A stretch of 64,000 nt of DNA from a virus, in the IMG/VR virus record IMGVR_UViG_3300035666_000002. The stretch is one strand, 5' to 3'. A model generated the notes under the pieces. The model was not told the DNA's origin, ran no database searches, and worked only from the letters and a program-made list of their open reading frames with translations. Positions 26,924-46,171 of the stretch are shown one piece after another. Numbering within the stretch: the stretch's first letter is position 1; the number at the start of each line of letters is the position of its first letter. A program made the position numbers and the translations under genes.

Positions 26924-27310
26924 TTATCCTATCTGTTTTATTTGTTTAATTAAATCTGCTGTAGATCCAACGAAAACTGCTTTGTCAACATTGACAACCG
27001 AAGTCTCTTTTACTGGAACTAAATCTCTTTTCTTCTTTTGCAATTCAATCAAGTCTTTATTGATATCAGACATATTTTTTATCAAAGTGGCTGCAACTTC
27101 ATATGCTCTAGGATGATCCGTTGCTTTTGCTACTTCTAATATATTGTCTACTGCAATCTTACCTTTTTCTGCTAAATCTCTTATATTTTGTCTAGCGAAT
27201 TCAAAATCTGAATCTACTTCTGTAGGTATCACTTCTGGTAAAGAAGATTCTCCTTTACCTAAAGGTTCGATATCAAATAATCTGGATAAATTTTCATCTG
27301 TTTTTTTCAT
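26924..27310 (-). CDS. gp16: Terminase small subunit
   Basis: DFEFARQN...HPRAYEVAATLIK...AVFVGSTADL. Confidence 0.95.
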   Translation of the reverse strand: MKKTDENLSRLFDIEPLGKGESSLPEVIPTEVDSDFEFARQNIRDLAEKGKIAVDNILEVAKATDHPRAYEVAATLIKNMSDINKDLIELQKKKRDLVPVKETSVVNVDKAVFVGSTADLIKQIKQIG

Positions 27311-28314
27311 GATAAGTTATTGGGAAATTCTTCTATGGTTTCAATAAATCCAAAATCATCATCTGGTGTAGCACCAAAAGGATCAACTTCAGTTACTATA
27401 GACACACTTTTTATTGGATTCAAATCTATCGTATCAACAGTATATGTGGCGTTCGAAAAGTCACCTACAACAATATCATTCTCTTCTAAAGATTCAGACA
27501 TATCAGAAACAACTAAAGTTCCTATGCTGTTATTTGAGAAATAAACAACTGTTCCTGTTTTGTTTTTTGAAACTACCCGAATAGTTTCTCCTGTAGTGTA
27601 AACACCATTACCAGTATTCATATCAACATAGACTTTTTGTATATTTGTATTTCTACTGTCGGTATAAATGTTAGTGTTTGCTCTCTTTATTATCTTATCG
27701 TTACCAAAGTTAACAGGCGGAAATATATAACCTTTCATCGTGAAAGTTAAGTTCCAGATAACTAAGCGAGTTGATGACATATCTCCTTCATATTCTATTT
27801 GAGGAGAAACTGAATCTAAAGTGATAGGTAAGTCAAATTTTCTTCCCAAAGACGGAATCAAATCTGCTGTAACCGTAAAGTCAGGTGTAAAGAAAGGTAA
27901 AATCTGTTCGAGTATCTGTGTACCATCTTCTTGATTTCTTACGAAAATGCTCAAGTCGAATTCGAAATTATATGGTATCGGAGAATACTGAGAGTTTACG
28001 GAATTAGTAACAGAATTAACTGCGAAATTTTTATTCAGAGTATTCATCTTTCTAGATGAATCGTAGTTGATACCTACCAAATCGAATGCAATTCTAGGTA
28101 CATAAACATTTATTGATTTCGTCAAGTCTGGGTCGGAAAATAAACGAGTTATATATTTTTCTTTTGAACCATAAGAAAGCGGAACTCTAGTTCTCTCGAA
28201 TTCTTCCGTACCTGCTTTGTTATATCTGACTAAAGTTATATCATTGAAAAGAGTTCCGAAAGCAGTAATCATCTTTCGAATTGTTCTATTATAAAAATGT
28301 GAATTTCCTAACAT
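27307..28314 (-). CDS. gp15: Tail sheath stabiliser, with an inserted beta module
   Basis: FYNRTIRK...FGTLFNDI; VPLSYGSKEKY; PIPYN; QILEQILPFFTP. Confidence 0.95.
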   Translation of the reverse strand: MLGNSHFYNRTIRKMITAFGTLFNDITLVRYNKAGTEEFERTRVPLSYGSKEKYITRLFSDPDLTKSINVYVPRIAFDLVGINYDSSRKMNTLNKNFAVNSVTNSVNSQYSPIPYNFEFDLSIFVRNQEDGTQILEQILPFFTPDFTVTADLIPSLGRKFDLPITLDSVSPQIEYEGDMSSTRLVIWNLTFTMKGYIFPPVNFGNDKIIKRANTNIYTDSRNTNIQKVYVDMNTGNGVYTTGETIRVVSKNKTGTVVYFSNNSIGTLVVSDMSESLEENDIVVGDFSNATYTVDTIDLNPIKSVSIVTEVDPFGATPDDDFGFIETIEEFPNNLS

Positions 28315-29219
28315 TATGCCTCACCAAAAGGATTTTTCTCTGTCCAATCCAAAATAGAATCTGCTTCAGTTTCAATAATTTTATTATCTGAAATATCTTC
28401 AAATACATTTTCATCAACTTGTGTGTCGGTATCTGCAAGTAGTACACTTCTGAGTGTCGAACTTGTATTACCTTTAATTTCACCTGTATTAAAGGTGCCT
28501 TGAATTCTTATTACATTTACGTGAGTATGTGGCTCATAAGAATGAACGATAGCTTGAGCGTTCGCTGTTGCTAATGTTGTCCCTTGATAAATGATTTCAC
28601 CGGGAACAAACGATCCTGTACTTGCTGGGAACACAGAATTATTAGCTAAGAACAATCTGGTTCTACGATATTCGTCAAATGCTTGACCATCCACTTCTTC
28701 AACACCAGTTGAAATAATCTCTTCACTGAACACATATTGTTTCATCTTCAACGCATAAACATAAACATTACCTCCGCGACCTCTACCTAATGTGTAGAAC
28801 ATAGCTTGGTCGTTTTCGTGCTCAACAAAAGTAATCTCGAAAAAGTTTTGCACAAGAGGGATGTATACCAAATCACCTTCTCTAGGTCTTGTAAGTGGCA
28901 CAGTATATTTAAATCTTCTTCTTGAAACTAATAGTGTAACCTCATCTCGAATTTCTAATCCAAATTTTGAAATGAAGTCACCTTCACCGTCCATGCCTGT
29001 GACGTTTTCCATATACATCTCAAGACCATGTGCAGTTCTATATTCTTTTAATGGATCTTCACCATAAAGCATATCGACTTGATCACGACTTGTTCTAGGT
29101 AAGTAATAGACATCCATGCCATGAATCTGCATAGCTTCAATGACCAAATCTTCAACTAGTAATTGCTCACTAGTTATTTGATGTTGTGGAAAATTATTGA
29201 AATAAAAATTAGTAGGCAT
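28314..29219 (-). CDS. gp14: Neck protein, with an inserted beta module
   Basis: EQLLVEDLVIE...G.DVYYLPR; SKFGLEIRDE; RPREGDLVY.P; FEITFVEHE; NPFGE end. Confidence 0.95.
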   Translation of the reverse strand: MPTNFYFNNFPQHQITSEQLLVEDLVIEAMQIHGMDVYYLPRTSRDQVDMLYGEDPLKEYRTAHGLEMYMENVTGMDGEGDFISKFGLEIRDEVTLLVSRRRFKYTVPLTRPREGDLVYIPLVQNFFEITFVEHENDQAMFYTLGRGRGGNVYVYALKMKQYVFSEEIISTGVEEVDGQAFDEYRRTRLFLANNSVFPASTGSFVPGEIIYQGTTLATANAQAIVHSYEPHTHVNVIRIQGTFNTGEIKGNTSSTLRSVLLADTDTQVDENVFEDISDNKIIETEADSILDWTEKNPFGEA

Positions 29220-29220
29220 A

Positions 29221-30174
29221 TTAACCTATGAATATTTCGCTTGGCATGGAAAGAGTGCTCTTTGCATCTTCTTCCAGCGATTCAATTTCTTCTTTAGCTT
29301 CTTGCATAATTCTTGGACCATCAAGCGTCACACCACCAGGCATTTGAATACCTGCAAATTTACTTAGGTTTGAACCCCACTGATATTTGATTTTAGCTGT
29401 AGCATATGCTTTTAAAAATCTATCATTCCAAACATCCGGAAATCCTGTCACAGTCATTGCATTTCCGCTGGAACTTGTGGCATACGATGAGCTAACATTC
29501 AAAGAAGTGTCACTATCTATTGTTATAATTCTTTTTGATTCATTAGCAATTACGATTTCATCACCAATTGAAACTTCGGAAGTAAATGACGTTCCGCTAC
29601 CCACAACTGTATTCGAAGAAGTAGAAATCGTTGCGGTTCCAGTTAAAGTTTTATTGTCTGGTGATATGTATCTATAACATTCAATGATGATATATTCATC
29701 AGGTTTAACATCTCTCGTCCAATCTATATCAAGATACAACCTGTCCATCTTTCTATTGAATCTAATTTGAGGTGTTCCAGAGAATAAAAGATTCAAAGTT
29801 CGAATATGTTGCATTGTAATTTCATACGAAACATAGGAAACAGAGGTAAAATCGTAAAGGTCGTGTAATCTAAGTTGATATCTCAAATCAAACATATTAA
29901 CTGACGAATTCGATTGATCAAACGGCAAAATACCAACAATAAATTGTATTGCATCTGGGCAAGGAATCCACTGACGATCTATATCAGTCTGTGTCAACTT
30001 GTGTTTCAAATACATTTGCTGAGTGCCGTCATAGTGATAATCATTGAAAAATGCTAGTGCATCATCAATTCTATCTTCTACCTGATCGTCATCTACGTTA
30101 ATTTGAATAACAGGATGACCTAAACGGCGCAAGCAATAGTCTCTAAACTGCGATCTTGTTGTTATTTTTGCCAT
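29221..30174 (-). CDS. gp13: Neck protein, with an inserted beta module
   Basis: YCLRRLG.PVIQINVDDDQVEDRID; YATAKIKYQWGSNLSKF.G.Q.PGGVTLDG. Confidence 0.96.
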   Translation of the reverse strand: MAKITTRSQFRDYCLRRLGHPVIQINVDDDQVEDRIDDALAFFNDYHYDGTQQMYLKHKLTQTDIDRQWIPCPDAIQFIVGILPFDQSNSSVNMFDLRYQLRLHDLYDFTSVSYVSYEITMQHIRTLNLLFSGTPQIRFNRKMDRLYLDIDWTRDVKPDEYIIIECYRYISPDNKTLTGTATISTSSNTVVGSGTSFTSEVSIGDEIVIANESKRIITIDSDTSLNVSSSYATSSSGNAMTVTGFPDVWNDRFLKAYATAKIKYQWGSNLSKFAGIQMPGGVTLDGPRIMQEAKEEIESLEEDAKSTLSMPSEIFIG

Positions 30175-30197: not shown

Positions 30198-30205
30198 TAT
30201 TTATA
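30198..30205 (-). promoter_or_regulatory. T4 late promoter TATAAATA for gp13
   Basis: Exact consensus overlapping the stop of the upstream GT gene. Confidence 0.8.
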
Positions 30206-31475
30206 TTCTCAACGGACCAGGTAATCTAGGCATACCTTCTTTTATGGCTACAAGCCAAGCGTCCGTGACGCAAACGTTAAGATTTTTCAGCCAATCATTA
30301 GGAAACCATGTTAGTTTTCTATATTCCTGAAATCGAATAGTTTTGTTTTCGATAAAATTGGCCAGATATGCGTCTGTGTAATACAAGAAACTATTCTCAT
30401 TCCAATAACTAACATGAGTGGGATCCTGAAATGCACCTCTTCCGTCTGTACTTGGAACTTGAATAAAAGCCCAACCTCCAGGAGCTAAAACTCTATGAAT
30501 CTCTTTCATTATTTCAGTTTTGTCTTTTAAATGTTCAAGAATATGACTGGCATTAATGACTCCAACAGTGTTGTCTGGAAGAGGAATGCCATTATTTAAA
30601 TCGTGAACGATGTCTGCATCCGATCTTAAATCAATTGCAACATAATTAGGATAAGGATTCAATCCTCCACCCAAATCTACACACAACAAATTCTTGTCTT
30701 TTGCATCTTTTTCAGCTAGTTTCTGTGCATACTGAGCAAACAATTCTACAGTCTTAACTTGAATCGCTTCGTTTCTTTCCAACCAAGTATTGTTTCCTGT
30801 GATTCTATAAATGTAAAGAACTTTAGGAACTCGTTTCATTTTTGTTGTTAGATATGTTCGAATACAAAGTTCATGATCGTCACAAATTGAAAGTGTTGGA
30901 TTGTGCCCTCCGAGCTTTTGATAAACTGATCTTTTCCAACTTCTAATATGATCGGGAGCATACCAAATATAACCCAGAGAATGTGAAGATGGCTCAAAAC
31001 TATCCATCGCAATTAATTGCTTGCCTTTCCAATCAAATGTTCTGTGTGTCCATCCATAACTTTGATCATAAGGAACAAATTCATCTTTCATATGAAGAAC
31101 AGCATTATCACTGTAAACAAAACCTACATCAGGTTCTTGGAAAGCAATAAACAATTCTTGTAAACAATCCGGTGTCAACAAATCATCATGATCAACTTCA
31201 ACAAGAATGTTGCCGGTACCAGAGTTAAAAGCTTTATTCTTAATTGCTCCAACTTTTGTTTCACCACTTCCATCATAAAAAACTTTTACTTTAGGATCTT
31301 TTACTATTACTTCAGGTAAAAAATCTTCTGTGCATTTATTGTTTAAGTATAGAACCCATTCCCAATCTGTGTATGTTTGTGCTTTAATTGTGTCGTACAA
31401 CTCAAGCAAAAAAGGAATATTATTAGGGTCGTGTTCAGGTGTGATAATGCTAAATTTCATAATATACTCACTCAA
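30201..31475 (-). CDS. GT2 glycosyltransferase fused to a class I SAM methyltransferase
   Basis: N-term FSIITP..QTYTDWEW..EVDHDD (DxD)..GFVYSD..DDHEL..R; C-term DLGGG...SHILEHL..EIHRVLAPGG. Confidence 0.88.
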   Translation of the reverse strand: MSEYIMKFSIITPEHDPNNIPFLLELYDTIKAQTYTDWEWVLYLNNKCTEDFLPEVIVKDPKVKVFYDGSGETKVGAIKNKAFNSGTGNILVEVDHDDLLTPDCLQELFIAFQEPDVGFVYSDNAVLHMKDEFVPYDQSYGWTHRTFDWKGKQLIAMDSFEPSSHSLGYIWYAPDHIRSWKRSVYQKLGGHNPTLSICDDHELCIRTYLTTKMKRVPKVLYIYRITGNNTWLERNEAIQVKTVELFAQYAQKLAEKDAKDKNLLCVDLGGGLNPYPNYVAIDLRSDADIVHDLNNGIPLPDNTVGVINASHILEHLKDKTEIMKEIHRVLAPGGWAFIQVPSTDGRGAFQDPTHVSYWNENSFLYYTDAYLANFIENKTIRFQEYRKLTWFPNDWLKNLNVCVTDAWLVAIKEGMPRLPGPLRI

Positions 31476-33174
31476 AGAAAAATAAATGTGTCAATCTTCC
31501 ATTTTGTTCATTTTGCCCAAAATAAGGACCAGCAGAATGAATCGCTCTCGCATCCATAATTAGAAGTCTATTGTATATATTTCCAATATTATCGACAGTA
31601 TCGAATTTGGTGCTGTCATAAAAACCATAAGAAAAGGAGTTGTCGATACCCTCTTCGGTCGAATGTCGAAGCCCGGTTATTTTCGATTTGTGCGATCTGG
31701 TACCGCTTTCTAAAGGAGCATTGGGTGTCAAGTAAATCATGCCTGCCCATCTTTGTTGATCATAATGATAAACTTGAGGATCATTTGATGTCGTTATTTG
31801 AAAAACTCCATTATAGCCATCATCCCACAAAGTAATTGTTTCACCTATAATTCTTTCAAATGTTCTCTTAATCGAATGTGGTCTATACGTATCTTTTGAT
31901 CTGAGACCTTTATACCATCTTATGTCTGCTTGATATTCAACACTTAAAGCATAATTTCGAATTTCATCAGGATTGTCATAAAAATTATCAACGACAAAAA
32001 CTTTTCTATCTAAACTTTTACGAATTGAGAAAACTGAAATATCTTTTGGTTTATTATTTTCGTATTTCTCTAATGCTCGTTGATGAATTTCTTGAACTCT
32101 TCCTGTTGAGCTGTCCCAATACATTGAAGTGTCGATGAAGTTCACATAATTGGGAAATGCATTTGTTCGTTCAGGTTGTAACATTCTTGTGGTTTGTTTA
32201 ACCATGTTTTCATAATCACCGATTTTTTCATAAAGAAGAGTTAGTGCCCAAATGTGATCATTTCTTCCTGGTGCAAACTTCTCGGAAAGATTATACGAAG
32301 CAATTGCTGCTGATGTATTATCTAACATCTGATAACAATCACCACAAAAAATTAATGAGAGATAACAAGTCTCATCAATTGGAACTTCTTTTTTATCTTT
32401 ATATAAAAAATTTACGAATTCTTGAAAATAATAAATTGCTCTCCTAGCATATTCTTTTCTTTGTGAATTTCCTAAAGGAAATGAATCACACTCTCTAGCA
32501 TCAAAATAACTTTTACCTATGTACCAAAAATGATATAGATTGGTCAACATCGTGCCATCAGATATCATTTGCTGCTCTAACGTTAAAGAATGTTTTACAA
32601 ATTTAAACGGATCGGACCAACTTTCACCTGTATTGAATCCTGTTTGTCTGAACTTAGGTGACAAATCATATCTCTGAAAATCTTTTCCGATTTCAGGTAA
32701 GTCACAATAAACAGTTTCATGACAAGGATCGTGATTGAATCTCCAAGGCATTTTTGCATTATACATCCACGCTCTATGATAGATGCTGGTGCCTTGAACT
32801 GCGGGTATATGAAAAGTATGAATATTCGTATCATCAAATACAGACCAATCGAAGTCATCATCAACTTCTAATATCTCATCACAATCCATTTTTAAAATCC
32901 AATCACACCCGTGATCGACACTTTGACAGTATTTAATTAGATGATCTCGATTCCAACCGAACCCTTTCCACCCTTCTTCACAAATATAAATTTCACCTGA
33001 AAGATTATTGTCTAATAGAAATTGTTTTGCAATTTCATCTGTTCCATCAGTTGATCCGTTGTTTTGCATAACATAATAATCAACATAAGGCAAACAAGAA
33101 TTTAACATTCTAAGAATGCTTTTAGATTCATTCTTGAACATTGTAATCATAACAATTTTTGTTTTCTTATTCAT
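31468..33174 (-). CDS. GT2-TPR glycosyltransferase fused to a 2OG-Fe(II) dioxygenase (DUF6445-like)
   Basis: MFKNES...GSTDGT...FGWNR...WILKMDCDE...HE; helical TPR-like middle; C-term VVDNFYDNPDEIR..YHYD..AGMIYLTP..NRL...HS...R.T..FFF (HxD...H...R). Confidence 0.85.
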   Translation of the reverse strand: MNKKTKIVMITMFKNESKSILRMLNSCLPYVDYYVMQNNGSTDGTDEIAKQFLLDNNLSGEIYICEEGWKGFGWNRDHLIKYCQSVDHGCDWILKMDCDEILEVDDDFDWSVFDDTNIHTFHIPAVQGTSIYHRAWMYNAKMPWRFNHDPCHETVYCDLPEIGKDFQRYDLSPKFRQTGFNTGESWSDPFKFVKHSLTLEQQMISDGTMLTNLYHFWYIGKSYFDARECDSFPLGNSQRKEYARRAIYYFQEFVNFLYKDKKEVPIDETCYLSLIFCGDCYQMLDNTSAAIASYNLSEKFAPGRNDHIWALTLLYEKIGDYENMVKQTTRMLQPERTNAFPNYVNFIDTSMYWDSSTGRVQEIHQRALEKYENNKPKDISVFSIRKSLDRKVFVVDNFYDNPDEIRNYALSVEYQADIRWYKGLRSKDTYRPHSIKRTFERIIGETITLWDDGYNGVFQITTSNDPQVYHYDQQRWAGMIYLTPNAPLESGTRSHKSKITGLRHSTEEGIDNSFSYGFYDSTKFDTVDNIGNIYNRLLIMDARAIHSAGPYFGQNEQNGRLTHLFFFE

Positions 33175-33905
33175 AATGTTCTTTCTTGTATCAACTTCAA
33201 AATTTCAGTGTTACTCTTTTGTTCTTCTGTTGGAGAATATAAAGCTCGTTTTCTCTGATTGGTATTTTCGGTAGAAGGTATTACATAATACATCGCAATG
33301 CTTTTTCGGTAGACATTTTCTGGGCATCTAATTGGTTTTGAAAATCCGTGCCAAGAATTTTGTGTGGTGTCGAACAGTAACAATCTGTTGAATTTATTTT
33401 CAATAGTCTTTACTAATTCCTTTGGTGTATTGTTGGTCTCATCATGTGACCAAAACTCCAAGTTGCCTCCCCAATTTTCATCCCAATCTTCCGAGAGATA
33501 ATAAATTAGATTTATCTTTCGCTCCATTTTTAATTTAGGGTGTAATGAATAATCTAAATGCACATTCAGTTTACCATTATTACCTTGAATGTGCCATCCA
33601 GCACCATGAAGCCCACAATCAGGAGTTAATTCATGACAAAAAGTTGAATTTCGTAAAAAATCTACGAATTGAGGAGAAATTAGATGTTGAAAAAATTGAT
33701 ATGTAGTTTCTGGAAAATGATACCAATTGTTTAATGCTTTTTTATTTTCCAAAGGATTGTCATAAACAAACCACTCTTTAGAATTATAGTCTATAAATTC
33801 GTTCGATAATTTTTTTGCTAAATCAATAGGTAAAAAATCATCTATAATAATGTGTGAAAAAGGATCATCATAAAATTGCATGTCATCTCCATTTTGGACC
33901 TTCAA
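33171..33905 (-). CDS. 2OG-Fe(II) oxygenase (prolyl hydroxylase-like)
   Basis: PFSHIIIDDFL...LHGAGWH...LNVHLD...NLIYYL..W..NWGGNLEFW...FNRLLLF...SWHG...RKS. Confidence 0.9.
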   Translation of the reverse strand: MKVQNGDDMQFYDDPFSHIIIDDFLPIDLAKKLSNEFIDYNSKEWFVYDNPLENKKALNNWYHFPETTYQFFQHLISPQFVDFLRNSTFCHELTPDCGLHGAGWHIQGNNGKLNVHLDYSLHPKLKMERKINLIYYLSEDWDENWGGNLEFWSHDETNNTPKELVKTIENKFNRLLLFDTTQNSWHGFSKPIRCPENVYRKSIAMYYVIPSTENTNQRKRALYSPTEEQKSNTEILKLIQERTL

Positions 33906-34455
33906 ACCATGCTGCTATACTATATCTAGTGCCTCTTGTAACTGGGTTTGCTTTGTGGCGAAATAGTGAAGGAAAGTAAATGAATGTTCCTTGCTGATTA
34001 ATATCTTTGTCTAATTTCGCCGAAGTTTCTGTGAGTTCAAGTTCACCACCAACATAATCGTTTGGATCGGAAAGTTGAATTACACAAGATAATTTTCTAT
34101 GATAAATTGGATCATTGTTTATCCAAAAAACATCATGATGCTCTTTATATTCACCTAGATATGTTTCATCATATTCTGCAAACTGAATAAAATCTAATTT
34201 GGTGATATGAAGATTGAAAAAATCTCGATTTGCTTCGAGTGCTGTTCTCCATAGTGCATCGAAAATATATTGATATCTCCAATCACCGGAATTTATAAAT
34301 CTAATCTTACTTCTTCGGTAATTATAATCAACACCTTCACCACCGTCTGTTCCTATATAACCATCTTGTATAGGCAAAACTTGTACTTCACTTATAATTT
34401 TCTCACACATTTCCTTGCTGAAATATGATTTAAAATAACACCATTCACCTTTCAT
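33883..34455 (-). CDS. 2OG-Fe(II) oxygenase (PKHD/P4H-type)
   Basis: QFAEY...YKEHHD...RKLS..IQLSDP.DY.GGEL...G..I.FPS...H...PVTRGTRYS..AW..GP. Confidence 0.92.
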   Translation of the reverse strand: MKGEWCYFKSYFSKEMCEKIISEVQVLPIQDGYIGTDGGEGVDYNYRRSKIRFINSGDWRYQYIFDALWRTALEANRDFFNLHITKLDFIQFAEYDETYLGEYKEHHDVFWINNDPIYHRKLSCVIQLSDPNDYVGGELELTETSAKLDKDINQQGTFIYFPSLFRHKANPVTRGTRYSIAAWFEGPKWR

Positions 34456-34468
34456 TTTATAACAATCC

Positions 34469-36583
34469 TTATGTTTTAGATTTTATATATTCTATTTGAT
34501 CCTTTTGTTCTTTTAGAGCTTGTATTAAAAGTGGAACAACTCTTTCATACATAACAGTCAAATAGTTTTCACCAGATACACTATGCCCATATTTATTAGA
34601 GTCAAATGGAGCGTTTGTGATAACTTCAGGTAAAACCTCTTGAACTTCTTGCGCTATGAATCCTACCTGCCTTTCACCTTCTTTTTTGAAACCTAGTTGC
34701 TTGGCTAATTCATTCTGTTCATAATACACACCTCGAATTCTCTCCAATCTTTCCAAACTTTTTTCAACCGGTCCTAATATATCTTTTAATCTCATATCAG
34801 AGTAACCGGCAGTAATATCTCCTGTAGCCCTAACTGTTCCTGTCGTACCAGCAGCAGTGTTCACACCAAGTGCTGCAACTTGATTTGGTGGTACAGCGGG
34901 AGGTCCTTGAAAACCTTGTCTGCCTTGAAATCCAGAAGTTGTGCTTTGTGGTCCTTGAGGACCTTGAGCACCTTGTCTACCTTGAAATCCTGGTACTCCA
35001 AAAATATTCTGTGGACCTAGAGGTCCTTGTCTACCTTGAAATCCTGATGTGGTTGCTTGAGCACCTTGAGGTCCTTGAACTCCTTGGCGACCTTGGAATC
35101 CTACAGTTGTTCCTTGAACACCAGTTGCACCTTGAACTCCTTGGTGACCTTGGAATCCTGCTGTGGGTCCTTGTGCGCCTTGAGGTCCTTGGAATCCTTG
35201 TCTACCCTGAAATCCAGATGTTGGTCCTTGAGCACCTTGAGGCCCTTGAACTCCTTGGCGACCTTGGAACCCTGCTGTTGGTCCTTGAGCACCAGTTGCT
35301 CCTTGAACTCCTTGGTGACCTTGGAATCCTGCTGTGGGTCCTTGTGCGCCTTGGAATCCTTGTCGACCTTGGAATCCTTGTGCACCTGCTGTAGGTCCTT
35401 GAGCACCTTGAGGTCCTTGAAAACCAGAAGGTCCCTGAGCACCAGTTGTTGGTCCTTGAGCACCTTGGAATCCTTGTCGACCTTGGAATCCTTGAGCACC
35501 TGCTGTTGGTCCTTGAGCACCTTGCGGTCCTTGAAAACCAGAAGGTCCTTGAGCACCAGTTGTTGGTCCTTGAGCACCTTGAGGACCTTGGAATCCTTGT
35601 CTACCTTGGAATCCAGATGTTGGTCCTTGAGCACCAGTTGCTCCTTGAACTCCTTGGTGACCTTGGAATCCAGATGTTGGTCCTTGAGCACCTTGAGGTC
35701 CTTGGAATCCTTGGCGACCTTGGAATCCTACAGTTGTTCCTTGAACACCAGTTGCTCCTTGAACACCTTGGCGTCCTTGAAACCCTGCTGTTGGTCCTTG
35801 AGCGCCTTGCGGACCTTGAACTCCTTGAAATCCTTGAAACCCTGCTGTTGGTCCTTGAGCGCCTTGCGGACCTTGAACTCCTTGGCGACCTTGGAATCCT
35901 ACAGTTGTTCCTTGAACTCCTTGAGGACCTTGAACTCCTTGAGTGCCTTGAAAACCTGAAGTTACTCCTTGAGGTCCTTGAAAACCTTGTCTGCCTTGAG
36001 CACCTTGAAAGCCGAAAACAGAACTTTGTGCACCTTGAGGACCTTGAGGTCCTTGAACTCCTTGGAATCCAGATGTAGGTCCTTGAGCACCAGTTGCTCC
36101 TTGGACTCCTTGGGCACCTTGGAATCCCGCTGTGGGTCCTTGAGCACCTTGCGGTCCTTGGACTCCTTGGCGCCCTTGGAATCCTGCTGTTGGTCCTTGA
36201 GCACCTTGAGGTCCTTGAGCACCTTGAATGCCTTGAGCACCTGGTGCTCCAGTAGGACCAGAAACTCCTTGAAAACCCTGAGCGCCTTGAGCACCTGCAA
36301 CAGTGCTTTGTGCACCTTGAGGTCCTTGAGCACCTTGAATGCCTTGAGCACCTGGTGCTCCAGTAGGACCAGAAACTCCTTGAACTCCTTGAGCACCTTG
36401 AAATCCTGATGGACCTTGAACGCCTTGAAAACCTACAGCACCTTGCACTCCTTGAAAACCTTGCGGACCTTGAGGTCCTCTTATGTTTTGTGTGTCGCCT
36501 ATCCAAACACCATTAGCTGCAATAACACCATGTGTTTCAATTGTCAATCCATTTTTTACAACAAATGTATTTGCAGTAGCCAA
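34469..36583 (-). CDS. Collagen-like fibre A with C-terminal intramolecular chaperone (peptidase S74-like)
   Basis: TTG start; N-term FVVKNGL; about 530 aa Gly-X-Y with periodic one-residue insertions; GYSDMRLK...GFIAQEVQEVLPE...YERVVPLLIQALKE. Confidence 0.9.
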   Translation of the reverse strand: MATANTFVVKNGLTIETHGVIAANGVWIGDTQNIRGPQGPQGFQGVQGAVGFQGVQGPSGFQGAQGVQGVSGPTGAPGAQGIQGAQGPQGAQSTVAGAQGAQGFQGVSGPTGAPGAQGIQGAQGPQGAQGPTAGFQGRQGVQGPQGAQGPTAGFQGAQGVQGATGAQGPTSGFQGVQGPQGPQGAQSSVFGFQGAQGRQGFQGPQGVTSGFQGTQGVQGPQGVQGTTVGFQGRQGVQGPQGAQGPTAGFQGFQGVQGPQGAQGPTAGFQGRQGVQGATGVQGTTVGFQGRQGFQGPQGAQGPTSGFQGHQGVQGATGAQGPTSGFQGRQGFQGPQGAQGPTTGAQGPSGFQGPQGAQGPTAGAQGFQGRQGFQGAQGPTTGAQGPSGFQGPQGAQGPTAGAQGFQGRQGFQGAQGPTAGFQGHQGVQGATGAQGPTAGFQGRQGVQGPQGAQGPTSGFQGRQGFQGPQGAQGPTAGFQGHQGVQGATGVQGTTVGFQGRQGVQGPQGAQATTSGFQGRQGPLGPQNIFGVPGFQGRQGAQGPQGPQSTTSGFQGRQGFQGPPAVPPNQVAALGVNTAAGTTGTVRATGDITAGYSDMRLKDILGPVEKSLERLERIRGVYYEQNELAKQLGFKKEGERQVGFIAQEVQEVLPEVITNAPFDSNKYGHSVSGENYLTVMYERVVPLLIQALKEQKDQIEYIKSKT
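34900..36480 (-). repeat. Collagen repeat, dominant 57 nt (19 aa) unit
   Basis: GAQ-GPTA-GFQ-GRQ-GVQ-GPQ type units; boundaries approximate. Confidence 0.85.
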
Positions 36584-36589
36584 AGTTTA

Positions 36590-38770
36590 TTACCTTTTTT
36601 CTATTTTTTTAATTAAGTCTGATATAATTAATTGTTGTTCTTTTATAGCTTGAGTGATTACCGGAATTAGTTTCTCATATTGAACAGCAAGGAAATTTTC
36701 ACCAGTTTTACTTTTTCCATTTTCATCAAGATCAAAAGGTGCTTGTGATATAATTTCGGGAACAGAAGGTTGTATTTGTTGTGCTATGAGCCCAACTTTT
36801 CTCGAATAATCTTTATATCCATATTTCTCAGCCAATCTATTTTGGGTGTAGTAAATTCCTGTCATGTTTAATATTTTTTCTAAACAATTTTCAATGACAG
36901 CAATTTTTGTTTTCAATCTTGCATCCGAATATCCTGAAATAATATCACTTGTTGCTCTAATTGTTCCAGTCGGACCGGCAGCAGTATTTATACCTAAAGC
37001 ACTCACATTAGGTGTTGATGTGGTACCTTGAGCACCTTGAGGTCCTTGTGGACCTTGAGCACCTTGAGCACCTTGAACTCCAGTAAATCCAGTTGGACCT
37101 GCACCACCTTGTGGACCTTGCGGACCTTGCACACCTTGAAATCCAAAAGGTCCCCCAGGTCCTTGCGGTCCTTGTGGACCTTGAACTCCAACTGGACCCT
37201 GCGGACCTTGAGGACCTTGTGCTCCTTGCGGTCCTTGAACACCGACCGGACCTTGTGAACCAGGAGGTCCTTGCGGTCCTTGTGGACCTTGAACACCAAC
37301 TGGACCTTGAGGTCCTTGTGGACCTTGTGCTCCTTGAGGTCCTTGAACACCGACCGGACCTTGACCACCAACTGGACCTTGTGCTCCTTGAGGTCCTTGA
37401 ACACCGACCGGACCTTGAGGACCTTGCGGTCCTTGAGGACCTTGAGGTCCTTGAACACCAACTGGACCTTGTGCGCCTGGAGGTCCTTGAGGTCCTTGCG
37501 GTCCTTGAACTCCAACCGGACCTTGTACACCTACCGGTCCTTGAGGACCTTGAGGACCCTGTACGCCGACTGGTCCTTGAGGACCCTGAGGTCCTTGTGG
37601 ACCTTGAGGTCCTTGTACACCAACTGGACCTTGACCACCTATTGGTCCTTGAAAACCTGATGGTCCTTGGACACCAACAGGACCTTGAGGTCCTTGAGGT
37701 CCTTGCGGACCTTGAGGTCCTTGCACACCGACCGGACCTTGACCTCCTATTGGTCCCTGAAAACCTGATGGACCTTGAACACCAACAGGTCCTTGAGGAC
37801 CTTGCGGTCCTTGTGGTCCTTGCGGTCCTTGTACACCAACCGGACCTTGAACACCAACTGGTCCTTGAGGACCTTGAGGTCCTTGTACACCGACCGGTCC
37901 TTGAGGACCTTGAGGTCCTTGCGGACCTTGAGGTCCTTGCACACCGACTGGACCTTGTGTGCCAGGAGGTCCTTGCGGTCCTTGTGGTCCTTGCACACCG
38001 ACCGGTCCTTGTCCACCAATTGGACCCTGAGGTCCTTGCGGACCTTGTACACCAACCGGACCTTGTGCTCCAACAGGTCCTTGAGCACCTTGTGGACCTT
38101 GTACGCCAACTGGACCTTGTACACCGACCGGTCCTTGAGCGCCTTGTGGACCTTGAACACCAACAGGACCTTGAGGTCCTTGAGGTCCTTGCGGTCCTTG
38201 CGGTCCTTGTACGCCAACTGGACCTTGTACACCGACCGGTCCTTGAGCGCCTTGAGGTCCTTGAACACCAACAGGACCTTGTGCACCAGGAGGTCCTTGC
38301 GGACCTTGCGGACCTTGTACACCTACTGGACCTTGTCCACCAATTGGTCCCTGTGGACCTTGAGGACCTTGTACACCTACTGGACCTTGTCCACCAATTG
38401 GACCCTGTGGACCTTGAGCACCAGGAGGTCCTTGAAAACCAGGTGATCCTTGCGGACCTTGGGGTCCTTGTGGACCTTGTACACCAACTGGACCTTGTAC
38501 ACCAACTGGACCTTGAGGACCTTGAGCACCAGGAGGTCCTTGAAAACCAGGTGATCCTTGCGGACCTTGAGGACCTTGAGGACCTTGAACGCCAGAAAAT
38601 CCTTGTGGTCCTTGCGAACCTACAAACCCTTGAGGACCTTGACTGCCAGGATAGTTAGATTTATTTCCTTGCCAAATACCCGATGAAGATATAATTATCT
38701 TTCCATTAGATAAAGATGTATTGCTTACTGCTAATCCATTTTTTACTACAAAATCCTTATTAGTTGCCAT
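36590..38770 (-). CDS. Collagen-like fibre B with S74-like chaperone
   Basis: DFVVKNGL N-term; about 180 apparently uninterrupted Gly-X-Y triplets (GPQ/GVQ/GPV); GYSDARLK...[14 protein letters not shown]. Confidence 0.9.
37020..38647 (-). repeat. Collagen repeat, 54 nt (18 aa) unit
   Basis: [12 protein letters not shown]-GPx-GxQ units; boundaries approximate. Confidence 0.85.
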
Positions 38771-40979
38771 TCAATTTTTCTCTGAGAATTTCTATTTCTT
38801 TTTGTTGTATTTTTATTGTTTCAACAATTAGAGGTATAAGGAATTGATATTGAACCGTTAAATAATTTTGGCCGCTTTTACTGTTACCATATTCATCTAT
38901 ATCAAAAGGAGCTAAAGAAATAATTTCAGGTAATATCTTTTGAACTTCTTGTGCTATAACACCAATCTCTGTTTTATAAGTGTGATAACCAAACTTCTCT
39001 GACAATTCATTTTGTTTATAAAAAATAGCACTTAATGAATACAATTTTTTATCCGCTTCTTTTATGTATTCTATATTATCTTTAAGTCTTACATCAGAAA
39101 ATCCAGCAACAATATCGCTTGTTGCCCTTAATGTGCCTGTAGGACCAGCAGCAGTATTTACACCTAATGCCGTTGCTTGTGTGCCTAATGCTCCTACTAT
39201 ACCTTGAGCACCAGGAACTCCTGTAGGTCCTGTTGGACCTGGAGCACCTTGACGACCTTGTGCACCAGGAACACCTGATGAGCCTGTTGCACCTTGAGCA
39301 CCTTGAGCACCTTGTGCACCTGGAACTCCTGTTGGACCTGTTGGACCCGGAACTCCTTGAAATCCTGGAGCACCTGTTACTCCGGTTGGTCCTGTTGGAC
39401 CTGGAACGCCTTGTGCTCCTGAAACACCTGGAACACCCGTTGGTCCGGCAAAACCTGGAACACCTTGGAATCCTGGTGCACCTGGCACACCTGTAGGTCC
39501 TGTTGGACCTGGAACACCTTGAAATCCAGAAACGCCAGGAACTCCTGTTGGTCCTGTTGGACCTGGAACTCCTTGGGCGCCCGAAACTCCTGGTACACCT
39601 GTAGGCCCAGCAACACCTGGAACTCCTTGAAATCCTGGAGCACCTGGAACACCTGTAGGTCCAGTAACACCCGGAACTCCTTGAGCACCTGAAACACCTG
39701 GAACCCCGGTTGGTCCTGTCGGACCTGCTACACCTTGTGCTCCTGCAACACCCGGAACTCCTGTTGGTCCTGTAACACCCGGAACTCCTTGAGCACCCGA
39801 AATACCCGGAACTCCTGTCGGTCCAGTAACACCAGGAACACCTTGAAATCCTGAAGGTCCTGTAGAACCCGTTGCACCTTGCGGTCCGGGAACTCCTTGG
39901 GCACCTGAAACTCCTGGAACTCCTGTCGGTCCAGTAACACCAGGAACACCTTGAAATCCTGAAGGTCCTGTAGAACCCGTTGCACCTTGCGGTCCGGGAA
40001 CTCCTTGAAATCCTGAAGCACCAGGAATTCCTGTAGGACCCGTTGGACCTGGAACGCCTTGTGCTCCTGAAACACCTGGAACACCCGTTGGTCCAGCAAC
40101 ACCAGGAACACCTTGAAACCCTGGAGCTCCTGGAACTCCTGTGGGTCCCGTTGGACCTGGAACGCCTTGTGCTCCTGAAACACCTGGAACACCCGTTGGT
40201 CCGGCAACACCAGGAACACCTTGAAATCCAGAGACGCCTGGAACTCCTGTAGGTCCTGTTGGACCTGGAACACCTTGAAATCCAGAGACACCAGGTACGC
40301 CTGTGGCTCCTGTTGGACCTGGAACTCCTTGAGCACCAGATACGCCAGATACACCCGTAGGACCTTGAGGTCCTGGAACTCCTTGTGCCCCAGAAACGCC
40401 AGGCACGCCTGTAGGTCCTGTTTGTCCTGCAACACCTTGGAATCCTGGAGCACCTGAAACTCCTGTGGCACCTTGAGGTCCTGGAACACCTTGAGCGCCA
40501 GAAACGCCAGGCACACCTGTAGGTCCTGTTGGACCTGGAACACCTTGAAATCCAGAGACACCAGGTACGCCTGTGGGTCCTGTTGGACCTGGAACTCCTT
40601 GAAATCCAGAGACACCAGGTACTCCTGTGGGTCCTGTAATTCCCGTACCACCTTGTGGTCCTTGTGCACCTGCTACACTGCTTGCTGCTCCTTGAGGACC
40701 GAGAACGCCTTGAAATCCAGAAACACCAGTAGCTCCAGTTGCTCCAATTAAACCAGTAGCGCCTTGTGGTCCTTGTGCTCCCGCCACACTGCTAGCCGCA
40801 CCTTGTGCACCTTGAGTGCCTTGTGGACCTCTATCACCACCTTGACCGGTTGCTCCTTGAAATCCTGAAAATCCCGTTATATTTGTTCCGGGACCTATCC
40901 AGTTTCCTGATGAATCGATTACATCTGTAGTGCCTACAGACAAACCATTTTTTACTATGAAATTAGAATTAGTAGCCAA
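38760..40979 (-). CDS. Collagen-like fibre C with S74-like chaperone
   Basis: TTG start; NFIVKNGL N-term; Gly-X-Y rich in GVP/GPT/GVS; GFSDVRLK...[13 protein letters not shown]. Confidence 0.9.
39190..40880 (-). repeat. Collagen repeat, 54 nt (18 aa) unit
   Basis: [18 protein letters not shown] units; boundaries approximate. Confidence 0.85.
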
Positions 40980-41009: not shown

Positions 41010-43610
41010 TTATACAGGAATTAATGTTCTCATGGCTTTATATGTCGTAGAAGCATTAGTTGGTGTTGATAACAATCTAACTTGGCCTCCAGTTATATTG
41101 GCATCAAATGTTGCTAAAGATGCTCCAGTTCTTATCTCACCATATTGCACTAAAAATACTGTGCTACCATCATGGACTAAACTTATCTCTATGACTTGAT
41201 ATGCAGAACCACTTGTTATCTGAACAAAGTATTTTGCTGATCTATAAACAGAAGAACTAAAGAAATCTAATATAAACTCTGTTGTACTAGACGTTGTTTG
41301 TGTAGTTGATGATAATGTAGAATTGGTGTTAAGTGTAATTGAAGTATTTGATATGAGAGAAGAACCAGTTAATGTTGAACTAGTTGTTAAAGCTCCAGTC
41401 ATAACATCGCCAGATTTATTGACTTTGGCGATATTAATTGCTCCAGTGTTGGCTAAAATTTCTAATCTAGCCGCACCCGTATTTGCTTGTGCAGCAGCGG
41501 TATCAGCAATTCTGGCGGCACCAACGTTCGCCTGATATGCATTGGTAATCGATGTTGTGGTTGATATTAAACCAGCACCAACATTAGCTTGAGAGATAGT
41601 CTGGTATGAAATTAAACCAGCACCAACATTAGCTTGTGAAGAGGCGGTATCAGCAATTCTAGCGGCACCGATATTTGCTTCGTATGCATTTGTAACAGAA
41701 ATTAAGCCTGCACCAACATTAGATTGACTACTTGATTGTATTGTATTTGCATAGTCAAGTGGATCTAATCCACGCAAACTTATTACATTTGTAACAAGAT
41801 TAGCACTTAGAGTTGCAACTCTAGTGTTTGCAACATCAATTATGTTTGTTGGTTCATTGTTTGTTAATAAATTGTCAAATAGGTAATATTTACCGTCTGA
41901 GTGTTTACGAACTAAACCGGTATGATTGTTTGGTGTGTTTGCATAGTGTCCAACAAAACCAATATCCAAAGCATCAGTTGAATTTTCAAACCCCAACTGA
42001 ATTATAGTATCAGTAACTTTAAGTGAGGTAACATTAATAGTGGTAGTGTTTCCAGCAATGGTTAAATTTCCCGTTACTGCCAAATCGCCCGAAATTGTAC
42101 CACCTGTTTTGTCCAGTTTATTTAATAAACCAGCGCCAACGTTTGCTTGATAAGCGTTTGTTACTGATATTAGACCAAGACCAACATTAGCTTCAGTCGT
42201 AGCTCTATCTGCAATTCTAGCCGCACCAACGTTTGCTTGATAAGCATTTGTTACCGATATTAGACCAAAACCAACATTTGCTTGACTTGCAGCCGTGTCG
42301 GTGATTCTAGCTGCTCCAATGTTTGCTTGGAGCCAAGTATTTGCAGTATTTGAAGATTCGAAAGCTAAATTTGCTTGATCAAAGGCTGAGTTTGCTCTGT
42401 TTGAAATGGCAATAAAGCTTGGAGTTGTGGAGTCGGACAATACTAGATCGGATGCACCAGAAATAGAAAGTGTTCCTGATGAATTGCTGATAACTGTTCC
42501 ACCCAAGTCGATAGAACCTGGTCCCACAAACAATGAATGCCAGCGTTTTGAAGGAGATCCTAAATTCCAAGTAACATCAGTATTGGGTGTAATGTTTCCT
42601 GAGACTTCAACATTTCCTAAAATTAACCCGCCAGTTTTGGCAAAGAATGTGCTATCAGCATAATTCTTTAAATTGGTATTTGCTGTTATTATCCCTATAC
42701 CAACGTTCGCTTCAGTCGTTGCTCTGTCTGCAATTCTAGCTGCACCAACATTTGCCTCATAAGCATTCGTGACTGATATTAATCCAGCACCGACGTTAGC
42801 TTGTGAAGCAGCAGCATCAGCGATTCTGGCGGCACCAATGTTTGCATATATGCTATTAACATTAGATACTAAATCTATACGAAGTTCACCAGTATTAGCA
42901 TAAACACCATTTGAAAGTAAATCAATTTTATCCAGCAAGAATATTTTTGCACCACCAACATTAGCCTGTAGCCAGGTATTTGCCGTATTCGATGAATCAT
43001 ACGCTTGTTGAGCTAAAATGTTTGCAGAATTAGCTTTATTGAAGGCTAAATTCGCTTGGTCGAATGCTGAGTTAGCAAGATTTCTAGCCGTAGTGTCTGG
43101 TGCGGATCCAGGATTTAAAAGGTTTGTTCCTGCACCACCAACGCATTCCGTTAAATCTATATAAGCTCCTCGGGCGCCACCGCCTTGCTCAAAGAATCTT
43201 ATTTTATTTTGATACGAATCAATAGTTATACCAACACCATCAAGTGTGGTATTGGTTACAGCCTTAGCTAATAATATTTCACCACCCTCATCACCGCCAG
43301 AATTGTTTGATATCAGCTTATTTGCTGTGACATCTACACTGGCTAATATTTTGTCTGTGCTAAGAGTTTTTGTGCTGGTGTCATATTTGAGATTTGCTGA
43401 AGCTCCAAATACACCAGAGTTATTGAATTGTATTTCACCGTTTAAACCGCTTGGTTCTGTTACGACATCAAATTGTGTGGCTATAGATGAAGAATTGCCA
43501 TAATACAATTTTCCATCATAATAGTTGATAGCAAGTTCACCAGGATATAATGTTGCTGGAACATTTCCTGCTTGACCTGAATTTTTTAATAAAATTATTG
43601 TATTAGCCAT
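41010..43610 (-). CDS. Fibre protein with Mtd-N/hyaluronidase-like N-terminus and ANVGAARI repeats
   Basis: P..LYPGELAINYYDGKLYYG N-term; QANVGAARI/QANVGAGLIS repeats; KTGGTISG; C-terminal YRSAKYFVQ..E...HDG...YG domain common in T4-like virion proteins. Confidence 0.8.
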   Translation of the reverse strand: MANTIILLKNSGQAGNVPATLYPGELAINYYDGKLYYGNSSSIATQFDVVTEPSGLNGEIQFNNSGVFGASANLKYDTSTKTLSTDKILASVDVTANKLISNNSGGDEGGEILLAKAVTNTTLDGVGITIDSYQNKIRFFEQGGGARGAYIDLTECVGGAGTNLLNPGSAPDTTARNLANSAFDQANLAFNKANSANILAQQAYDSSNTANTWLQANVGGAKIFLLDKIDLLSNGVYANTGELRIDLVSNVNSIYANIGAARIADAAASQANVGAGLISVTNAYEANVGAARIADRATTEANVGIGIITANTNLKNYADSTFFAKTGGLILGNVEVSGNITPNTDVTWNLGSPSKRWHSLFVGPGSIDLGGTVISNSSGTLSISGASDLVLSDSTTPSFIAISNRANSAFDQANLAFESSNTANTWLQANIGAARITDTAASQANVGFGLISVTNAYQANVGAARIADRATTEANVGLGLISVTNAYQANVGAGLLNKLDKTGGTISGDLAVTGNLTIAGNTTTINVTSLKVTDTIIQLGFENSTDALDIGFVGHYANTPNNHTGLVRKHSDGKYYLFDNLLTNNEPTNIIDVANTRVATLSANLVTNVISLRGLDPLDYANTIQSSSQSNVGAGLISVTNAYEANIGAARIADTASSQANVGAGLISYQTISQANVGAGLISTTTSITNAYQANVGAARIADTAAAQANTGAARLEILANTGAINIAKVNKSGDVMTGALTTSSTLTGSSLISNTSITLNTNSTLSSTTQTTSSTTEFILDFFSSSVYRSAKYFVQITSGSAYQVIEISLVHDGSTVFLVQYGEIRTGASLATFDANITGGQVRLLSTPTNASTTYKAMRTLIPV

Positions 43611-43619
43611 TGCCCGATG

Positions 43620-44207
43620 TTAAAATGTGCCTCCAGACTTCACCAAATCATTTTCTTCTTGTGCATTATCTATTGGTTCTGGTTGAACATTTTCACCAAG
43701 TCTAACTTTTTTCAGTTTCGCGGCTGGAACTACGTTTTCTAATTTGAGTATGTATCTATTTAATTCTTCGATTTTATTTACGTTTTGTATCAGAATTTCT
43801 TGAGATTCAATTTTCACTTTTAAAATTTCTTTTCTTGTTTCTTCTAATTGTCTCATGTAGTCGTTTACGGCATTTTGCAATCTATTCTTTTCAGCAACAA
43901 TACTATTCATGACATTTGCTTGTGTATCCTTAGTGTTTAACGAAGATTTCAAGTTATCTTTTTCACTTATCAATGAATTTATTTGTTTATCTTTTTCGCT
44001 TAAATTAAAATCTCTTTGTTGCAAGCCATGTTGTAACTCTTCATTTCTTCTAGACAAATCATTAACTTGCCTTCTAAAATCTTCGAGAACTTCAAATTCA
44101 TTTTTATTAACTTCTAATTGAGCTTGAAACATAACGTTTTGCTTGATAACAGAAACAAAATTATCAAGCAAAACGTTAACATAAGCATTTTGTAACTTCA
44201 CATCCAT
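43620..44207 (-). CDS. Coiled-coil protein, possible fibre assembly factor
   Basis: Heptad-rich; GGAG RBS; ends SGGTF. Confidence 0.7.
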   Translation of the reverse strand: MDVKLQNAYVNVLLDNFVSVIKQNVMFQAQLEVNKNEFEVLEDFRRQVNDLSRRNEELQHGLQQRDFNLSEKDKQINSLISEKDNLKSSLNTKDTQANVMNSIVAEKNRLQNAVNDYMRQLEETRKEILKVKIESQEILIQNVNKIEELNRYILKLENVVPAAKLKKVRLGENVQPEPIDNAQEENDLVKSGGTF

Positions 44208-44229
44208 GATAAACTCCGTTCAAAATAAT

Positions 44230-46137: not shown

Positions 46138-46162
46138 TTTTTGCCCTATTGAGTTATTATTG

Positions 46163-46170
46163 TATTTATC
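46163..46170 (-). promoter_or_regulatory. Late promoter variant (GATAAATA)
   Basis: NATAAATA just after the stop at 46172 and upstream of ATG 46137; the nearest candidate I found for driving the fibre/collagen/modification cassette. Confidence 0.65.
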
Positions 46171-46171
46171 C

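Follow-up and report, generated by a model that had tools for sequence, protein, structure and literature searches.

A candidate fibre-modification cassette beside three collagen-like fibre genes of an uncultured T4-like lake phage

Introduction

Does a bacteriophage modify its own collagen? The question is raised by IMG/VR record IMGVR_UViG_3300035666_000002, a stretch of 64,000 nucleotides (hereafter the window) from an uncultured T4-like myophage of lake water. In the window three collagen-like fibre genes (colA, colB and colC) are followed by four enzyme genes, which encode two stand-alone Fe(II)/2-oxoglutarate (2OG) oxygenases (oxy1 and oxy2), a family 2 glycosyltransferase (GT2) joined to tetratricopeptide repeats (TPR) and a DUF6445 oxygenase domain, and a GT2-methyltransferase fusion (GT2-MT). 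A first-pass annotation had proposed that the phage hydroxylates, glycosylates and methyl-caps its collagen fibres. Judging from the sequence data, we consider it slightly better than an even bet that the cassette is a fibre-modification module which decorates the phage's own fibres. This reading rests on gene content, catalytic motifs, protein folds, synteny, co-occurrence, and enzyme sets that follow collagen composition. From these features we infer that the collagens are the substrates, and likewise the residues modified, the order of the steps and the role of the resulting coat (stability, adhesion or shielding). The part of the original proposal that stood is that enzymes of protein-modifying types are tied to the collagens and that oxy1 tracks proline, whereas chemistry of the animal type did not hold up. 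Our literature search revealed no paper on phage-encoded collagen hydroxylation or glycosylation.

The collagen and enzyme genes form one compact block

The seven genes lie at 30201-40979 on the minus strand, as originally annotated, and all long genes of the window are encoded on this strand. In the order of transcription, baseplate and large fibre genes are followed by colA, colB, colC, oxy1, oxy2, GT2-TPR-DUF6445, GT2-MT, gp13, gp14, gp15, the terminase subunits and the sheath gene. With these neighbours on either side, the cassette falls within the late structural region, at the position which gp12 and wac occupy in T4, immediately ahead of the neck genes. The intergenic spacings from colA to GT2-MT are -11, +6, +13, -23, -4 and -8 nt. 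The overlaps or gaps under 15 nt reported earlier thus apply to all pairs except oxy1 and oxy2, whose overlap is 23 nt. At its outer edges the block is separated from the upstream gene by 30 nt and from gp13 by 26 nt, and TTG serves as the start codon of colA, colC, oxy2 and the GT2-MT gene.

The major capsid protein of the phage is 62-64% identical to its cyanomyophage homologues, and megablast of the region against GenBank phages gave no nucleotide match. A near-identical enzyme region is carried by at least 24 lake-water metagenome runs (2020-2024).

Three long fibres of similar length and almost without charge

The fibre proteins colA (739 aa; 38760-40979), colB (726 aa; 36590-38770) and colC (704 aa; 34469-36583), all on the minus strand, contain the collagen repeat (PF01391) above the Pfam cut-off (E 1e-86, 3e-77 and 5e-50), with 186, 181 and 163 triplets, respectively. 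Each ends in a Peptidase_S74 intramolecular chaperone of the endosialidase/T5 pb1 type (PF13884; 36-44 bits versus a cut-off of 22), which spans residues 628-739 in colA (window 38763-39098), 615-726 in colB (36593-36928) and 595-704 in colC (34472-34801), again on the minus strand. A cleavage-type motif, SDxRLK, is present in all three fibres (SDVRLK in colA, as read from the sequence). The common layout consists of a conserved head of about 35 aa (MATNxxFxVKNGL...), the collagen domain, a short conserved tip and the S74 chaperone. The collagen domains of colA, colB and colC comprise 566, 543 and 527 aa, from which a length of 151-162 nm is computed at 0.286 nm per residue, in good agreement with the earlier estimate of roughly 150 nm. 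Self-cleavage of the S74 domain would leave a fibre that is almost pure triple helix of 151-162 nm, with about 25 non-collagen residues staying at its tip.

The statement that the collagen domains have no lysine and almost no charged residues was also borne out: Lys is absent from all three, and in colA, colB and colC, respectively, there are 1, 0 and 0 Asp plus Glu, 2, 0 and 14 Arg, and 0, 0 and 3 His residues. The absence of Lys excludes the lysine chemistry of animal and mimivirus collagens. The repeats themselves differ between the paralogues. The 186 triplets of colA are rich in V-P-G and P-T-G, with 50 Pro and 53 Thr in the Y position; colB consists of 181 triplets without a break, mainly GPQ and GPV, with 113 X-position Pro, 127 Y-position Gln and no charged residue; and colC is rich in G-x-Q (126 Y-position Gln) and is split into 25 runs by one-residue insertions. 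The 24 interruptions of colC are regular and follow a strict 19-residue period of six Gly-X-Y triplets plus one extra residue (GPTA or GPTS). In relatives, the third collagen gene is likewise the most interrupted one.

The paralogues are only 50-57% identical, which indicates that they are not being homogenised. Among 16 non-redundant phages, the length of the collagen genes varies two-fold from phage to phage (376 to 796 aa), whereas the median spread within a phage is only 14 aa, and the lengths of the genes within a phage are correlated (r 0.91-0.94, permutation P < 1e-4). Between the near-identical phages L032 and L096, each of the three paralogues differs by exactly +24 aa (8 triplets) at about the same place. 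These sequence comparisons argue for a strict equal-length rule. Such a rule would follow if the chains formed an A-B-C heterotrimer, or if three homotrimers had to span the same distance. The joining of the three chains in one A-B-C heterotrimeric helix may explain why their lengths change in step, but in the window the regular interruptions of colC, which are absent from colB, speak against a simple heterotrimer.

The stand-alone oxygenases are nearest to the PKHD/YbiX and OGFOD1 hydroxylases

The genes oxy1 (190 aa; 33883..34455, minus strand) and oxy2 (244 aa; 33171..33905, minus strand) both encode Fe(II)/2OG oxygenases of PF13640 (58 and 64 bits, respectively), and oxy2 also matches PF13661. 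The HxD...H iron triad and the basic residue binding 2OG, which characterise this class, are present as H106-x-D108...H167...R177 in oxy1 and as H116-x-D118...H186...R200 in oxy2, and are invariant in the family alignments. When the family profiles were compared with PDB, oxy1 was nearest to the PKHD/YbiX/PiuC hydroxylases (9e-11), with weaker matches to Chlamydomonas prolyl 4-hydroxylase (P4H), PhyA and P3H1. The nearest match of oxy2 was OGFOD1 (1e-12), a ribosomal-protein prolyl hydroxylase, followed by PhyA and PHD2. P4Hs appeared in these searches only at 1e-4 to 1e-5. The stand-alone oxygenases are closest to PKHD/YbiX and OGFOD1, and not to collagen P4H. The Pro residues of colB and colC are mostly in the X position, whereas animal collagen P4H acts on Y. 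A literature search on the function of PiuC gave nothing relevant. In addition, oxy2 has weak NCBIfam matches, far below the cut-off, to FlmC, an oxygenase of a flagellin-modification locus, and to YhhC, a peptide-maturation oxygenase.

The two fusion enzymes combine glycosyl transfer with hydroxylation and methylation

The GT2-TPR-DUF6445 protein (568 aa; 31468..33174, minus strand) has three domains: a GT2 domain of GT-A fold (residues about 7-180), TPR helices (about 191-373) and the DUF6445 oxygenase (residues 385-568, window 31471-32022, minus strand; H470-x-D472...H546...R560). Pfam recognises the GT2 and DUF6445 domains, the latter (PF20043) at 26.7 bits versus a gathering cut-off of 24. 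The TPR domain was missed by Pfam in the single sequence and was recovered by the family profile against PDB and by the AlphaFold2 (AF2) model. Likewise, PDB searches with the single sequences of both fusion proteins gave no match, and the matches came with family profiles. The DCDE motif of the GT2 domain (D97-C-D99-E100) is invariant in the alignment.

The AF2 model of the whole protein (pLDDT 88.5) has as its best Foldseek matches in PDB the peptide glycosyltransferases SunS and ThuS (E 3.5e-15, TM 0.56-0.64), over the first two thirds of the chain; AspH (TPR plus oxygenase) and LH3 (glycosyltransferase plus hydroxylase, E 2e-8) come later in the list. By sequence profile, the GT2-TPR part matches TPR proteins and the flagellin glycosyltransferase GmaR, its best sequence match. 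The enzyme has the layout of the SunS/ThuS/GmaR type, in which the substrate-binding TPR domain comes after a GT-A fold carrying a DXD motif. That a hydroxylase is fused to a glycosyltransferase of a protein-modifying type points to coupled hydroxylation and glycosylation, as known from LH3 and mimivirus L230. When modelled alone, the DUF6445 domain adopts the double-stranded beta-helix oxygenase fold (pLDDT 91), and it is nearest to OGFOD1 (TM 0.62), PHD2, PhyA and a Pseudomonas P4H. By sequence it matches phrog_1644 (E 4e-26), a PHROG named 'minor coat protein'.

One feature of the DUF6445 fold weighs against a role in fibre modification, since it matches the AlkB-type enzymes ALKBH3 and ABH2 (E 2e-4) almost as well as it matches prolyl hydroxylases. 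Moreover, cyanomyophages possess many PF13640 and DUF6445 genes to which no role has been assigned. The cassette might therefore have no common target, with its oxygenases being general 2OG enzymes of the cyanophage type (nucleic acid repair or metabolic sensing) and its glycosyltransferase and methyltransferase genes being unrelated morons. We regard this as highly unlikely, because the oxygenase is fused to GT-TPR in a single polypeptide in more than 100 loci and also occurs in split but adjacent forms, the gene order is conserved, and none of 64 loci examined has collagen genes without any cassette enzyme. The split forms of relatives consist of a free DUF6445 protein of about 195 aa and a free GT2-TPR protein of about 379 aa. 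In another relative (L074, 8675-11704) a 1009-aa protein combines four domains, Methyltransf_24-GT2-TPR-DUF6445, and lies beside GT2-MT, ThyX and a ribonucleotide reductase (RNR) gene, away from the collagen genes.

The last enzyme of the cassette, GT2-MT (30201..31475, minus strand), consists of a Pfam GT2 domain (residues about 1-250, DHDD motif) and a class-I S-adenosylmethionine (SAM) methyltransferase (about 260-424), and its motifs, including the methyltransferase core, are invariant in the alignment. The GT-A domain is related to chondroitin synthase (7e-18) and GalT1, with a weak match to TuaG. The matches of the methyltransferase are generic, namely a D-glucose O-methyltransferase at E 0.03 and lipid N-methyltransferases. 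On sequence grounds the methyltransferase probably acts on a sugar rather than on protein, as its fusion with a glycosyltransferase fits sugar methylation better than the methyl-capping of the fibre that had been suggested. The metal and 2OG ligands of the three oxygenases, both DXD-type motifs of the glycosyltransferases and the methyltransferase core all remain unchanged in relatives that are 30-90% identical.

The enzymes co-occur with collagen genes in related phages

Scans of IMG/VR with the two fusion proteins yielded 152 loci, and a second scan, anchored on gp14 and blind to the cassette, added 76 further loci. Co-occurrence was counted in the 64 gp14-anchored loci that extend at least 6 kb upstream of gp13. 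Enzymes and collagen genes were found together in 48 of them, 11 had neither, 5 had only the enzymes, and collagen genes alone were found in none. The full order of collagens, oxy1, oxy2, GT-TPR-oxygenase, GT-MT and gp13 is retained to about 55% identity. On the gp14 tree, five independent losses or gains of the enzymes can be counted, all of them shared by the collagens. In the loci with neither, other fibres fill the space, for example a 1505-aa RCC1-repeat protein, and these loci lack the four cassette families although they do carry other sugar genes (sulfotransferase, epimerase, kinase-like). In one such locus (L202, 840-5354), where the RCC1-repeat protein replaces collagens and cassette, gp14 is almost identical to that of the collagen-bearing L208. 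Where the cassette is unlinked, lying beside ThyX and RNR with an extra methyltransferase domain on the GT-TPR-oxygenase, all five contigs tested encode collagen elsewhere. Among contigs without the cassette, collagen was found in one of five and a PF13640 gene in none of five, although this is a rough control as contig sizes differ between the groups.

Several observations weigh against a tie between enzymes and collagens. The genes are linked, so one block swap may remove enzymes and collagens together (sign test P = 0.125), and sign tests on the 3-5 independent contrasts give P = 0.125-0.25, which is not significant. In a strict adjacency test, collagen lay within 3 kb in only 27 of 60 GT2-MT clusters, partly because relatives insert extra enzyme genes between the collagens and the cassette. 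In some relatives the cassette stands beside ThyX and RNR. Cyanophage Sf-FS3, whose complete genome encodes no collagen, has six weak-to-moderate DUF6445 matches in a sugar-gene island, and the GT2-MT of S-CRM01 (54% identity) lies beside psbA, about 50 kb from the collagens of that phage. In S-SCSM2R, a TPR-DUF6445 gene is located 6-8 kb from a 978-aa collagen open reading frame. The predicted association was found across many related phages, but distant homologues of single enzymes lie away from collagen genes or occur without them. Clusters that are independent of collagen, named beforehand as evidence against the proposal, accordingly exist in part among remote relatives. The enzyme families are not bound to collagen everywhere, and the link holds for the window's clade.

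The sugar genes of these loci bear on the main rival explanation, according to which the cassette is a phage glycan island acting on the lipopolysaccharide (LPS) O-chain or capsule of the host, for example in superinfection block, and adjoins the fibres only because the region before gp13 is a hypervariable host-recognition cluster. In the host-recognition cluster of pelagimyophages and cyanomyophages, both of them aquatic and T4-like, tail-fibre genes are interspersed with genes for glycosyltransferases; there, modification of host LPS is the published reading, the collagens are considered only as putative receptor-binding proteins, and neither oxygenases nor coupling to collagen are described (PMC7029224). 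At this very position the genomes of relatives contain, in addition, genes for a sulfotransferase, a sugar epimerase, an APS-kinase-like protein and more glycosyltransferases, and loci without collagen carry such sugar genes too. In L048 (4257-8697) and L062 (2024-5711), fibres and cassette are separated by genes for a sulfotransferase, an NAD-dependent sugar epimerase, an APS-kinase-like/KTI12-like protein, a DUF4422 protein and a further GT2, which hints at sulfated glycans. The DUF6445 homologues of marine cyanophages are located in sugar-gene islands, and the GT2 domain of GT2-MT is nearest to polysaccharide synthases. However, by its fold the GT2-TPR part belongs with glycosyltransferases that act on peptides and proteins, and three oxygenases resembling prolyl hydroxylases have no obvious role in LPS synthesis. 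Where the collagens are missing, it is specifically the four cassette families that are missing with them while other sugar genes stay, and the cassette genes overlap the fibre genes inside the late block. We therefore consider action on host glycans unlikely, if still the most serious competitor of fibre modification.

The fused enzyme was nearly absent from 185,579 bacterial/prokaryote species genomes, in which the single match was on a 4-kb contig. This contig (L165, CAXHFF010000079.1; 49% identity to GT2-TPR-DUF6445) is binned in a metagenome-assembled genome of Acidimicrobiaceae. The contig may represent phage sequence that entered the bin or give a weak clue to the host, and is too little to name one.

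The enzyme set follows the composition of the collagens

Lineages that lack oxy1 (L041/L176, L017, L063 and L167) have 0-0.12 X-position Pro per triplet in their collagens and those with oxy1 have 0.13-0.64, and all four close contrasts agree. In this form the earlier link between hydroxylase and proline finds some support, and a match with collagen proline content is a further point against host glycans as the target. The other enzymes vary as well. Collagens of (GPT)n type are accompanied by oxy1 and a GT1 (L217 and L236), those of (GAT)n type by a GT1-MT fusion and no oxygenase (L167, a close relative of the window by gp14), and mixed GPT/GPQ collagens by oxy1, a free-standing DUF6445 protein and a small GT2 (the L208 clade). 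The full enzyme set occurs with Pro-containing G-x-Q collagens, as in the window, and the set minus oxy1 with Pro-free G-[AV]-Q collagens (L041/L176, L017 and L063). The three cassettes without DUF6445 are those with the lowest Y-position Gln. These trends reflect few independent events, and some cassettes may have moved as blocks with their collagens. No correlation was found between oxy2 and Y-position Gln or Y-position Thr/Ser.

There are also exceptions that count against a composition rule. The collagens of G003 contain 0.24 X-position Pro per triplet, yet no oxy1 is present on its 143 kb, so that an advance prediction of oxy1 failed, and G001 and G005 have Pro-poor collagens yet possess a distant PF13640 gene. 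The collagen of L176 is built from four amino acids, Gly, Ala, Val and Gln, and its Y positions hold neither Pro nor Thr nor Ser, yet the locus retains oxy2, GT2-TPR-DUF6445 and GT2-MT. This implies that oxy2, DUF6445 and both glycosyltransferases cannot depend on hydroxyproline or on Y-position Thr/Ser. Their target, as far as can be read from these sequences, might be Gln or Val of the helix, or the Ser/Thr-rich ends.

The latter option leads to the explanation that the cassette modifies virion proteins outside the triple helix, such as the Ser/Thr-rich ends of the fibres, other fibres, or the neck or capsid. L176, with three enzymes kept beside a collagen of four amino acids and with a non-collagen head and tip rich in Ser and Thr, is in accord with it. 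Enzymes of the SunS type, moreover, recognise a folded or helical peptide and not a triple helix, and in some contigs the cassette is far from the collagens. However, it is the make-up of the collagen domains themselves that the enzyme sets track, and only about 25 non-collagen residues would remain at the tip after S74 cleavage. A target outside the helix thus seems to us rather improbable.

Proposed mechanism

If the cassette decorates the phage's own fibres, it would be a late-expressed module for a fibre together with its maturation. The three collagen-like chains would fold by means of their C-terminal S74 chaperones, which would then cut themselves off and leave an uncharged triple helix of about 150-160 nm attached by the 35-aa head. 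In the host cytoplasm, the four downstream enzymes would modify the fibres or their short non-collagen ends. The candidate target of oxy1 is Pro, mainly X-position Pro in Gly-Pro-Gln or Gly-Pro-Thr. GT2-TPR-DUF6445 would grip the protein by its TPR domain and couple a second hydroxylation to the attachment of the first sugar, oxy2 could contribute further hydroxylation, and GT2-MT would extend the glycan and O-methylate a sugar. A more specific and very doubtful proposal is that the target of DUF6445, and perhaps of oxy2, is neither Pro nor Lys but another residue, most likely the Y-position Gln of Gly-X-Gln, whose hydroxylation would create the acceptor for an O-linked methylated glycan, which in relatives might also be sulfated.

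Neighbouring genes and transcription signals

The neck gene of the gp13 type (head-tail adaptor), a conserved anchor downstream of the cassette, lies at 29221..30174 and is followed by gp14 (28314-29219) and gp15 (27307-28314), all on the minus strand. The T4-type late-promoter consensus TATAAATA is found at 30198..30205 on the minus strand, 24 nt upstream of the gp13 start and overlapping the GT2-MT stop codon. As a late promoter marking the downstream edge of the cassette this word is only a lead, given that the motif was not enriched across the window (3 found versus 4.95 expected) and that a promoter and terminator scan of the window gave counts not above those of shuffled sequence.

On the other side of the block, the family search gave no assignment to the genes of 866, 195 and 652 aa at 41010-46188. 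Further upstream in transcription order, a fibre of 2067 aa (46765-52968), likewise equipped with an S74 chaperone, is followed by a 110-aa gene resembling tail-fibre assembly genes (46422-46754), and a 2042-aa DUF4815 protein is encoded at 53205-59333. Far from the cassette, a small glycosyltransferase-like gene (1359-2174) matches Anp1 weakly, and an AAA_5 ATPase is encoded at 2621-3769.

Discussion

Modification of viral collagen is itself already known from mimivirus, which, like the window phage, encodes both collagens and modifying enzymes, the lysyl hydroxylase-glucosyltransferase L230 and the glucosyltransferase R699 (PMC9546862, PMC12279948). L230 and human LH3/PLOD3 (with COLGALT1) resemble the window enzyme in having a 2OG oxygenase and a GT-A domain in one protein, but this is an analogy of architecture only. 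Their chemistry leads from Lys to hydroxylysine and on to Gal/Glc, whereas the window collagens have no Lys and those of most relatives have 0-2. The overall TM score between LH3 and the window enzyme is about 0.2, the domain order in the latter is GT-TPR-oxygenase, and DUF6445 is closer to OGFOD1/PHD than to the lysyl hydroxylase domain. The window phage also differs from the mimivirus system in that its host is a bacterium.

The glycocin S/O-glycosyltransferases SunS and ThuS, a class covered in PMC6405829, and Listeria GmaR, a flagellin O-GlcNAc transferase, share with the window enzyme a GT-A (GT2) domain followed by TPR-type helices that hold the substrate. Identity is only 13-16%, however, these enzymes have no oxygenase, and their substrates are small bacteriocins or flagellin. 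The glycosylation of hydroxyproline in Skp1 of Dictyostelium and Toxoplasma (the P4H PhyA, then Gnt1 and further glycosyltransferases) and plant hydroxyproline-O-glycosylation offer a precedent for a cytoplasmic hydroxyl of the P4H type that is extended by soluble glycosyltransferases. The PDB matches of oxy1, oxy2 and DUF6445 all include PhyA (6t8m), though with weak scores (E 1e-5 to 2e-4). In Skp1, in contrast to a repetitive fibre, a single residue is modified, and no such enzyme fusion is known there.

The exosporium collagen BclA of Bacillus anthracis and B. cereus has GPT repeats bearing O-linked, partly methylated rhamnose oligosaccharides. It is thus a prokaryotic, uncharged, Pro/Thr-rich glycosylated collagen-like filament with methylated sugars, and (GPT)n collagens occur beside oxy1 and a GT1 in the relatives L217 and L236. 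The enzymes are not homologous, though, the window collagens are dominated by Y-position Gln, and we know of no hydroxylation of BclA. In chlorovirus A064R, as in the window GT2-MT, a glycosyltransferase is fused to a SAM methyltransferase; this fusion builds methylated glycans, with the methyltransferase methylating the transferred sugar. Mycobacteriophages possess glycosyltransferases, encoded beside structural genes, that glycosylate virion proteins. Specific to the present analysis is the combination of a SunS-like GT2-TPR fused to DUF6445 with GT2-MT and two PF13640 enzymes, together with the matching of enzyme set and collagen composition. This matching permits concrete and cheap tests, with one enzyme per repeat peptide.

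The collagens of bacteria and phages are regarded as unmodified, with charge pairs or polar residues providing their stability. If the phage does modify its own fibres, this view would be overturned for a large and abundant group of lake phages, and the hydroxylation and glycosylation of Y-position Gln, if true, would be a collagen chemistry known from no organism. The cassette would also supply compact, cytoplasmic enzymes compatible with Escherichia coli for the production of modified recombinant collagen. For the aquatic T4-like phages, it would provide a function for some of their unexplained 2OG oxygenases and 'LPS-type' glycosyltransferases.

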